Below are positions 20,907-23,900 of a stretch of 64,000 nt of DNA, piece by piece (positions within the stretch are counted from its first letter, which is position 1; the number at the start of each line of letters is the position of its first letter). The stretch lies in assembly GCA_047967505.1 (NCBI GenBank), contig CM106538.1, one strand, 5' to 3'. The notes under the pieces were generated by a model that ran no database searches, was not told the origin of the DNA, and saw nothing but the letters and a program-made list of their open reading frames with translations. This DNA comes from Dipteris shenzhenensis (Eukaryota). The translations under genes and the position numbers were made by a program.

Positions 20907-23900
20907 TTACAACTGAATAGAGTCTGATGAGTCCTCTTGAGGCTATGATTCTCTAAGAGTACATTGAGTCTCTATTTCTTGTGTGGATGGTGTACATTGA
21001 GATTCTACTTCTGGTGCAATCGGGATAGACTTAATCTCTTCCTCCTTTGCAAGATGTGATGTTGTAGATGCACATTGAGTCTCTACTTCTTGTGTAGGAA
21101 GAATGCATTGAGTCTCTAATTCAAGTGGAGACTGTAATGCTTCTACTTGAGGCTGTGATGCAGAAGGAGACTAAATTGTCTCTTGTTTTTCTTTGGCTCC
21201 CTCATGTTCTTCATTGAGTCCATCATGTTGTTTTGCAATGGTAGCAGTTAGGTAGTGAACAGTCTTAGCCATAAAATCTTGTAGCTCGAGCTTTGTATAT
21301 GCTTCTATTGAGACATGTTCAAAAATTTCATTGAGGAACAACATGAACTTGTAGGAAATTCTCCACCCACTACTAAACTTGTCTTTCTGCTCCACTGCGA
21401 GGCGTGTTTGGAAATTTGGTTGGTCTTGATGCTCCTTGATTTTCATAATCGCAGAAACTAACTTATTTGTAGACCTGTCCATCATGACATATGACAAAGT
21501 GAATTTGTGTAGTAAATAGTAAGATGTATGTTCATAATGATATGACAAAAGAACACTTACTTGAACACCCCGTGAAAGCGTGTAAATGAATTGACAAACC
21601 AACAATGGTTGTCATCAAGATCCCATACTATCAGGCTCCAATGTGAGCTACATCACCAATAAAGAGCGATAAGATTTATCACAATATTAAGTATTAATTG
21701 ACACAATATTACAAATAAAAGAGTAAAAGAAAGATTGAGATGATACTTACTTCTCATAATATGGCATAAAGATAACTAGCATGCCATCCAAGTCTAAAGG
21801 TTGTAGCATTGAACAAACATCATCTACTGTCTTCTTGGTATCACTAAGTATAGCTGAAAGGAGAGAATCGAGCATACACACGCGATTCTGTACTGATCTA
21901 GGAAAGTGAGATATAACCGTACTGTAGCAATAAATAAACAAATGTTAGAAGCAGATTGAATCAAATGATTGAAGTATCAAGCCAAGAGATGTTCATATCA
22001 AACCTGAGGATGGCCATCATGACTTTGTCATTAGCCTCTTTCAAAGGGTCAGAGAGGATTGTAACTTCCTTGCTACCAAAACACGAGGTTGCTTGCTAAT
22101 GATAACCCTAACCTCAAAAGACCACCACGTTATCAATAAATGCCTTAACGATAGATGACATAAATGCATATAGATGCAAGTATGTATATGTCGACAATGA
22201 GGTTTCACCACCACTCAAATTAAAAATTTGAGCAAGGAGCAAAAAGTAGTTATATCCGACTCTCCACCCACAACTGTGATCATCATGTTACATACTCTAT
22301 TTGATCTTCTAAGTCACCTTCCATTTGCATAAGTGCATCTATAGCACCTACCAACTTTCGAGCCGATCTATACATCAAAATAGAAAACATAAATGAATGT
22401 GCACATTGTATAGGATGCATCTCATTGACGTAATTATGACACAAGTAGGTTATACTTAGTCTGACACATTGCCATGGATAGATGCTATTGAATTGACAAA
22501 GAAACATTGCTTGGCTAAGATGTCCACAATTACCAAGATCCAATGCAAGCTGCTTTATCAATTAAGAATAATTATTATTTGATATAATCCTCCACAATGT
22601 AAGAGATAAGCTAGGTAGGGATTGATACTCACTCCTCGTGATATGCAGTAAAGATAACTCGTGCCGCAGTCAAATCAACAGGTTGCAACCACTTAAAAAC
22701 ATCATCTATGTTCTTCTGCTTATTGCTAAGTACACTAGAAACAAGAGGATCGACCATATATGCACATCTCTGTATATATAGGGAAAGCTGTTCTAAAACC
22801 ATACTGCAATAAAAGGAAAAGAATATTAGCTCATTTGATCCAATGGAAATACAAAAGCATAAAGTCAATAAAAAGTTTATGTCAAACCTAAGGATGGTTA
22901 TTATGACCTTGTCATTAACCTCTTTCTTGAAGTTTATAAGGATTGACGAATAGAAAAGTAAGAGGTTGTTCTCGAACTTGAAGCCTAACTTGAAATGACT
23001 TCTCCATTTGCTGCAAGATATGATTATTTTCTAGAGTCATCAGATGGATAGCCAGAGCAGCTTTGCTTTCTTGAGATGAGCTTTCTATATTCTCTACTCC
23101 AGCTATGTCCTCCTCATCCTCCTCCTTTACCTTCTCCTATAAAAGGATAAAATAATTATGAGATTCAAAATTTTAAATTAATTATAAATTTAAAAATACC
23201 TTTAAATGAATAAAGAAAATTAAACATAAGTTTTCATACCTCTACATATATTCGTGGTCTTTTTATGTAACCTTCTGAGGCAAGATCAGTGTCATATCCA
23301 TCTTCTTCAGCTTCCTTACTATCGCTGGTGTCCTCACTATCATATCCAGAGCTTTCAACATTTTCAACATCTTTCTTGCTCTCATCATACATGACCATCT
23401 CTATGTCAGCATCCTCTTCATGTGAGATCAGACCTTTCTTATCATACTTTGTTGTGAGAGAAGCCACGGTATCAAGGTATTCTAAGCAAGCAGGGCTCTC
23501 AATAATATTTACATGGTGTCCTTTTCTAATAAGAGCTTCAAACAAATGTCCGATGCGACACAATGTGACTTCCCATCCGGATGGCAGCAAAAATTCCATC
23601 ATACTAATTAAAAGATCAGCACTTTTTGCTAGCCTTTCATAGTGATTTACATTGTGATGGAGGGGACTTGGAGCTTCATGCTCTTCTAGCAGTAGTTGCA
23701 ATCTCTTTGCATTCCCTCTTATGTTGTTCTATAAGGAGTGATCATTGTAAGGGCTCTTCATGCACAAGAAAAAGGTTTCAAGACTCTGTATCTTGAGACC
23801 GCATTCTCTCTTGTCCCTTTTTCTTGAGTATATACCATTGTAAATCTTAAGCTCATTGCCATATTGTTTTTCTAGGGTAGCAGACATTTTTTCCTTGTCA

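Follow-up and report, generated by a model that had tools for sequence, protein, structure and literature searches.

We analysed a 64-kilobase (kb) window of Dipteris shenzhenensis DNA (contig CM106538.1, assembly GCA_047967505.1), in which the minus strand between 22,960 and 21,174 encodes, in tandem, two repeats of ~200 residues each that resemble Ulp1/C48 proteases. Here, the window is the whole 64-kb stretch, and all positions are counted from its first letter. Its character is eukaryotic and plant-like, with short AT-rich GT-AG introns, copia reverse transcriptase (RT) fragments, long TTTAGGG-type arrays, and a 182-base-pair (bp) satellite. On the sequence comparisons described below, we consider it likely that this locus carries a decayed member of a multi-copy gene with introns, which codes for a protein with two tandem Ulp1/C48-like (clan CE) domains that arose by internal duplication.

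Architecture of the gene and its two repeats

The gene, all parts of which lie on the minus strand, begins in the window with a long upstream exon (23240..24993) that was delimited by reading frames and spans ~585 codons; an acceptor-like site at 24994-24995 points to at least one additional 5' exon. A GT-AG intron of 103 nucleotides (nt) in phase 0 (23137..23239), placed by its splice-site context, separates the upstream exon from an exon for an acidic linker and the start of domain 1 (22888..23136), which is read in two overlapping frames, ...QPLTFLF and NFKKEVNDKVIITILR. Domain 1 continues in its exon 2 (22633..22803; 56 full codons), which covers the helical part preceding the His strand, and in its His exon (22456..22549; His codon 22545-22543), the length of which departs by one base from the phase that domain 2 would predict. 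Domain 1 ends, and domain 2 begins, within the next exon (22004..22367). Domain 2 has its own exon 2 (21751..21921; 56 full codons), its own His exon (21561..21647; His codon 21643-21641), and a last exon (21171..21474) that closes with a TAG stop at 21173-21171. The three introns of domain 1 (22887-22804, 22632-22550, and 22455-22368) and the three of domain 2 (22003-21922, 21750-21648, and 21560-21475) are all GT-AG introns of phase 2 and 82-103 nt in length. An intact version of the gene is predicted from this layout to encode a protein of ~1,000 residues composed of the ~585-codon upstream region, the acidic linker, and the two tandem Ulp1/C48-like domains.

A first-pass annotation of this DNA had quoted active-site motifs for both domains, and each of them, checked codon by codon, lies at its quoted place on the minus strand. 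Domain 1 has LHWILVIVD with the His-Trp codons at 22545-22540, FFVNS with the Asn codon AAT at 22494-22492, and DDHSCGW with the Cys codon TGT at 22272-22270. Domain 2 has SHWSLIVWD with His-Trp at 21643-21638, FVNS with the Asn codon AAT at 21592-21590, a Gln codon (CAG) at 21389-21387, and KFSSGW, in which AGT (Ser) at 21371-21369 occupies the Cys position. The Asn follows the His by 17 residues in both domains. Thus, as had been noted, Asn stands at the usual place of Asp in both repeats, and the nucleophile position is Cys in domain 1 and Ser in domain 2. One further residue differs in other copies of the gene, which we obtained by aligning contigs of four public DNA runs to positions 20900-25100 and which are 80 to over 99% alike. 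At the ATC (Ile) codon at 22538, the other copies in three of these runs read Ser, giving HWSL; because HWSL is also found in domain 2 and in bacterial C48 domains, the HWIL of the window copy is the derived state.

The two repeats have three intron positions in common, as originally claimed; the introns follow ..ILR, ..Y(H/Y)E, and ..HG.., respectively. Repeat 1 and repeat 2 are 41% identical over 162 aligned residues, and their local alignment score of 289 compares with a mean of 30.3 for shuffled sequences (standard deviation 5.4, maximum 61; n=500). When the exons of one repeat were compared with those of the other by tblastn, they found their partners with E values of 1.5e-10 (exon 2), 1.5e-5, and 5e-7 (Cys region versus last exon). 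Because the identity, the score relative to shuffles, and the exon partners agree, we conclude that the repeats did arise by internal duplication, as proposed, and that they retained their intron positions. Judged by these comparisons, the repeats are true paralogues and an anciently duplicated pair. No further copy of the repeat was detected in the 64-kb window by tblastn with each exon.

Relationship to Ulp1/C48 proteases

Scanned against Pfam (24,736 families), each His exon returned Peptidase_C48 as the sole family: the 30 residues of the domain 1 His exon matched PF02902 with an E value of 0.0097 (16.2 bits, profile positions 96-120), and the 28 residues of the domain 2 His exon with an E value of 0.62 (10.3 bits, profile positions 95-119). 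Of note, a Pfam scan of the stop-to-stop frames did not find C48 because the His exons sit in another frame. A two-row profile of the His exons was searched against solved structures, and all 12 of the 12 matches at E <= 10 were C48 proteases (ChlaDUB1/2 and SENP2), aligned on the catalytic His strand. We also compared a profile of the two spliced repeats with a reference set of 14 Pfam-verified C48 domains, i.e. E. coli ElaD and 13 domains from Pseudomonadota genomes. Using hhalign, the two profiles aligned over 116 columns with a probability of 88.8% (P 2.5e-6, score 46.3), pairing HW with HW, FVNS with hYDs, Gln with Gln, and Cys/Ser with the Cys of dCG. None of 200 column-shuffled queries reached this score (maximum 27.9), and the reversed query scored 11.0. 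From the Pfam matches of the His exons, the structures recovered, and the hhalign result with its shuffles, we conclude that each repeat is a diverged domain of the C48-like type, in line with the first-pass annotation.

In a preprint, the residues of yeast Ulp1 are given as His514, Asp531, Gln574, and Cys580 (bioRxiv 10.1101/2025.11.21.689808); this numbering gives spacings of 17 and 6, which match the His-Asn and Gln-Cys/Ser spacings here. The catalytic His lies in an HW beta-strand in both His exons. The third triad residue is Asn rather than Asp, and it keeps the 17-residue spacing and aligns to the D of hYDs. The Gln six residues before the nucleophile, which corresponds to the oxyanion-hole residue Gln574 of Ulp1, is present in domain 2; in domain 1, it is deleted in the window copy and present in a contig of one of the public runs, run X1 (..KQNDDHSCGW). 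The Cys codon of domain 1 aligns to the C of dCG, the position that is Ser in domain 2. Compared with Ulp1/SENP proteases (Pfam Peptidase_C48, clan CE; yeast Ulp1, PDB 1EUV), the gene therefore has the same order of His, third triad residue, Gln, and nucleophile, the same HW strand, and the same spacings of 17 and 6, in addition to the 116-column profile match, while it differs in having Asn for Asp in both domains, Ser for Cys in domain 2, GW after the nucleophile, and two domains in tandem; also, its single exons score under the Pfam cut-off. The bacterial reference domains (GTHWSLLLVD..YHYDS..QQ.N.YDCGVFV, versus NSHWSLIVWD..FVNS..Q.....SSGW and DLHWILVIVD..FVNS..SCGW in the window) are ~14% identical to the window repeats over the aligned columns, and they are single domains within large proteins and have Asp and Cys intact. 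A phrase search of the literature, which was narrow and is no proof of novelty, returned no tandem or duplicated Ulp1 protein and no protein with two C48 domains.

The clan CE protease pS273R of African swine fever virus (ASFV) provides a precedent for Asn at the third place of the triad; its residues are given as His168, Asn187, and Cys232, with one sentence of the source giving Asp187 (PMC9866604). Because pS273R has Asn together with His and Cys, Asn is compatible with activity, and the Asn of domain 1 could complete a triad. In contrast to the window gene, pS273R is a single-domain viral protease that processes polyproteins, and its His and Asn are 19 rather than 17 residues apart; the likeness noted here is one of triad residues. 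In intact copies, domain 1 would act as a cysteine isopeptidase on a ubiquitin-like modifier. Domain 2 would either bind without catalysis or be a serine variant of weak activity.

Decay of the window copy and its relatives

The copy in the window is a pseudogene and unable to make protein. Its stop codons and frame breaks number at least eight, and other copies from public DNA runs are free of five of these. The lesions of the upstream exon are TAA at 24339-24337, TAG at 23731-23729, and the loss of one nucleotide at 24116/24117 in a run of T (24123-24117). Domain 1 has lost 14 nt at 22946/22947, its His exon ends in an in-frame TAA (22458-22456), and 20 nt are missing at 22283/22284; this last deletion takes the Gln codon with it and changes the reading frame, and a TAA stands directly before HDDHSCGW. 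In domain 2, the initial part has a 7-nt deletion at 22076/22077, and we infer that the frame also changes there near a T run at 22119-22116, a change not observed in any other copy. From exon 2 to its own stop, domain 2 is intact. The first-pass annotation was thus right about the motifs of domain 1 and overlooked the breaks in this domain of the window copy.

Several of the breaks are undone in other copies. In contigs of run X1, translated by hand, 20 nt present at 22283 give ...QIEYVTCPAAKQNDDHSCGW, in which Gln stands six residues before Cys, 7 nt present at 22076 give ...QPRVLTFGSKEVTILSDPLKEANDKV, and 14 extra nt at 22946 in one contig join both frames of the linker exon. An extra T at 24116 in copies from runs X1 and X2 rejoins the upstream frames, and an extra base at 24337 in another copy abolishes the TAA at 24339-24337. 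Two explanations that we had considered for the frame changes were given up: the TAA before HDDHSCGW is not a mutated Gln codon, given that another copy shows the 20-nt deletion, and an additional micro-intron before KE(V/A)NDKV was dropped because the 7- and 14-nt deletions account for the frame change. Right after the TAG stop at 21173-21171, a 75-codon open frame in which the motif ETQC is repeated continues in phase (20946..21170, minus strand), and the indels between copies in this frame are of 3 nt and of 4+5 nt. This frame may be a lost C-terminal extension, and in that case the TAG would be one more lesion.

Run X1 gave 26 matching contigs, distributed as 1, 9, 10, and 6 over four likeness classes from >=99% to <90%, and run X2 gave up to four contigs at one place. 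Because X2 is a metagenome, only run X1 was counted as one organism; it documents many diverged copies of the gene in a single genome. Because the X1 assembly comprises only 1.95 million letters, this number of diverged contigs favours a high-copy repeat. The copies also vary in the upstream region: in both X1 and X2 there are loose ends at position 23744, and ~1.6 kb is added at 24202. At the latter place, which lies within the upstream exon, an X1 contig matches both flanks with the ~1.6 kb between them, and this is either a deletion in the window copy or an insertion in the other. Synonymous changes make up 13 of 28 coding substitutions (binomial P of 0.011 against an expectation of 25% and of 0.049 against 30%), these 28 having been drawn from the 40 best-supported of about 220 substitutions and hence selected by support. 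The excess suggests that the gene family was formerly under constraint.

A family with Cys and Ser in tandem would, if true, be a natural experiment in which an enzyme stands beside its own inactive or altered twin, and such a pair could be used for asking what Ulp1-like domains bind and cleave. Its value is limited in that the window copy is dead and the Ser of domain 2 may be private to this copy.

Our reading of the locus has to be weighed against several results that point the other way. Regarding the C48 assignment, the exons 2 and the last exons scanned singly gave no Pfam match to C48, and the best single exon, at 16.2 bits, lies below the Pfam cut-off of 20.7 bits, the exons having been scanned one at a time. 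A profile of the Cys region did not recover a C48 structure from the PDB and gave one unrelated match (E 1.4). Taken alone in hhalign, domain 1 aligned through His, Asn, and Cys with a score of 30.7 and a low probability of 28.6%, and domain 2 aligned over 31 columns around His-Asn only (score 27.3, 12%), although each of these scores exceeds all 60 shuffles. A profile hidden Markov model (HMM) of the reference set, which is bacterial and narrow, scored domain 1 at 10.4 bits and domain 2 at 4.6 bits, both weak, and 1 of 4,000 shuffles beat 10.4 bits. There is no RNA run among the six listed runs with parts of the gene, leaving the exon junctions without read support, and the selection by support of the coding differences counts on the same side. 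Finally, the first upstream frame (218 amino acids) had no match among 1.84 billion representative proteins, and word-index protein searches returned nothing for the last exon or for the frame of 164 amino acids before the linker.

Other searches with parts of the gene had similar outcomes. No Pfam family was found for the ~585 upstream codons, the Atlas gave no usable match for the last exon or for a frame of 160 amino acids, loci related to the last exon were not found in metagenome contigs, and tblastn of the His exon against plasmids gave no match. Single-sequence AlphaFold models of two upstream frames had predicted local distance difference test (pLDDT) values of 36 and 45 and were too poor for a structure search.

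Mobile elements, rival explanations, and the surrounding region

Three units encoding a DUF7869 transposase (PF25273, E 3e-54 to 2e-41) are present in the window: unit A at ~4174-8421 and unit B at 31620-~36180, both on the strand opposite to the gene, and unit C at 58822-63443. Units A and C are ~95% alike, and B is ~80% alike to both. All three have the same 5' start, A and C have the same 3' end, and in B the matching 3' piece lies ~4.5 kb on, giving a unit length of about 4.2-4.6 kb. No part of the protease gene is found in any of them; rather, the gene lies 12.7 kb beyond the end of A and 6.6 kb before the start of B. The first-pass annotation had proposed that the proteases were captured by a Sola-like element. 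Because the DUF7869 units with shared ends hold no protease gene, this capture is unsupported in the window. The gene lies outside the shared ends of A, B, and C, the units proposed to be Sola-like; nor does it lie, in the window, inside element ends with a transposase of a known superfamily, as in the KAONASHI type. An inverted terminal pair enclosing the gene was not found across 8.4-26.3 kb, which speaks against the mobile-element part of our reading, keeping in mind that the ends of a single-copy insert cannot show in one window. A search of 8.4-21.2 kb, adjoining the gene, gave no other transposase family. We infer that the gene is not part of the neighbouring DUF7869 units and that it belongs to a repeat family, probably a mobile element the ends of which are out of sight here. 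The term DUF7869 did not occur in the literature searched, and loci related to the DUF7869 transposase were not found in viral contigs.

Ulp1-like domains are well documented on transposons, namely in the KAONASHI genes of Arabidopsis Mutator-like/VANDAL elements without terminal inverted repeats (non-TIR), in similar elements of melon, rice, and grapevine, and in Ginger1 transposases; these domains are described as repeatedly acquired by plant and animal transposons and their role as unknown (PMC13317346, PMC2836005). The window gene resembles KAONASHI and Ginger1 in having a C-terminal C48-like domain, in being a repeated gene unlike host genes, and in the different stages of decay of its copies. 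It differs from them in being linked, within the window, neither to a transposase of Mutator, Ginger, or any other type nor to element ends, and from known transposon-borne ULP genes in its tandem duplication, the Asn in both domains, the Ser in the second domain, and the upstream region without relatives. A more specific proposal, to which we give little credence, is that intact copies of the gene encode a new kind of mobile-element accessory protein in which an active Ulp-like isopeptidase with an Asn triad is fused to a Ser sister domain that holds the modifier, i.e. a reader and an eraser acting on the element's own chromatin. In this scenario, domain 2, having lost cleavage, would bind either a modifier of the SUMO or ubiquitin type or a host protein in modified form, and the pair would strip silencing-related modifications at the chromatin of the element. 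The first-pass annotation had suggested a pair of active protease and pseudo-protease that may counter SUMO/ubiquitin-dependent silencing.

Two alternatives concern the origin of the gene family. An ordinary, non-mobile host family of Ulp-like proteases that grew by segmental duplication, with the window copy as a dead paralogue in a repeat-rich region, would explain why neither termini nor a target-site duplication nor a transposase was found with the gene and why its introns are of the normal plant type. We regard such a family as unlikely given the 26 diverged contigs in the small X1 assembly and the variable upstream parts of the copies (the loose ends at 23744 and the extra 1.6 kb at 24202), while the lack of relatives in protein searches would be unusual for a conserved host protease. 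It is also conceivable that the gene is an accessory gene of the DUF7869 ('Sola-like') transposon and that the 4.5-kb units are deleted derivatives of a larger autonomous element, all the more as three such units lie within the same 64 kb and as two telomere-type arrays, oriented head to head, each have a start close by on their outer side, that of the gene for one and that of unit B for the other. Nevertheless, the units share ends and none has a part of the gene, the exons found no second copy beside A, B, or C by tblastn, and no inverted pair spans the interval searched, making this origin very unlikely in our assessment.

A further alternative bears on the decay itself. If TAA and TAG were read as Gln, as in genetic code 6 of some green algae, the gene would be unbroken; two of the six listed runs with parts of the gene are labelled algae metagenome, and the frame past the TAG stop continues to a TGA. 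However, the frameshifts persist under this code, and the 435-codon frame of transposase B has 12 CAA/CAG codons and not a single TAA or TAG. Moreover, the in-frame TAA/TAG of unit C corresponds to Leu in units A and B rather than to Gln, the TAA before HDDHSCGW results from the 20-nt deletion, and another copy lacks the TAA at 24339-24337. Because of the persisting frameshifts, the Leu at the unit C site, and the stop-free frame of transposase B, we rejected this reading, which we consider scarcely credible.

Several other features of the region were recorded. Two telomere arrays of the plant type, (AAACCCT) x58 at 25844-26252 and (TAGGGTT) x131 at 30648-31575, face each other head to head, and the 4.4-kb block between them is mostly CT-/CCCTCT-rich (about 27.2-30.6 kb, GC content up to 0.59). 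Telomeres fused at an interstitial site, the insertion of a linear piece, or a join made in assembly could each account for this arrangement. The start of the protease-like gene lies ~850 bp outside the first of these arrays. The DUF7869 units start directly after tandem arrays, A and C after the 182-bp satellite and B after the TTTAGGG array. The satellite forms two large arrays, at 1-4158 and 49546-58736, and a block in the second (52584-53609) is inverted relative to its neighbours. Downstream of the gene, there are 141-bp tandem repeats (20164-20505), with a minus-strand open frame of 211 codons (20076-20708) that matched no family, and 186-bp tandem repeats (18732-19098). Copia-type RT fragments (RVT_2, E 1.5e-16 and 1.8e-6) occupy 38110-38443 on the minus strand, in the interval from unit B to the second satellite array. 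A 184-bp tandem repeat extends over 42075-42872.

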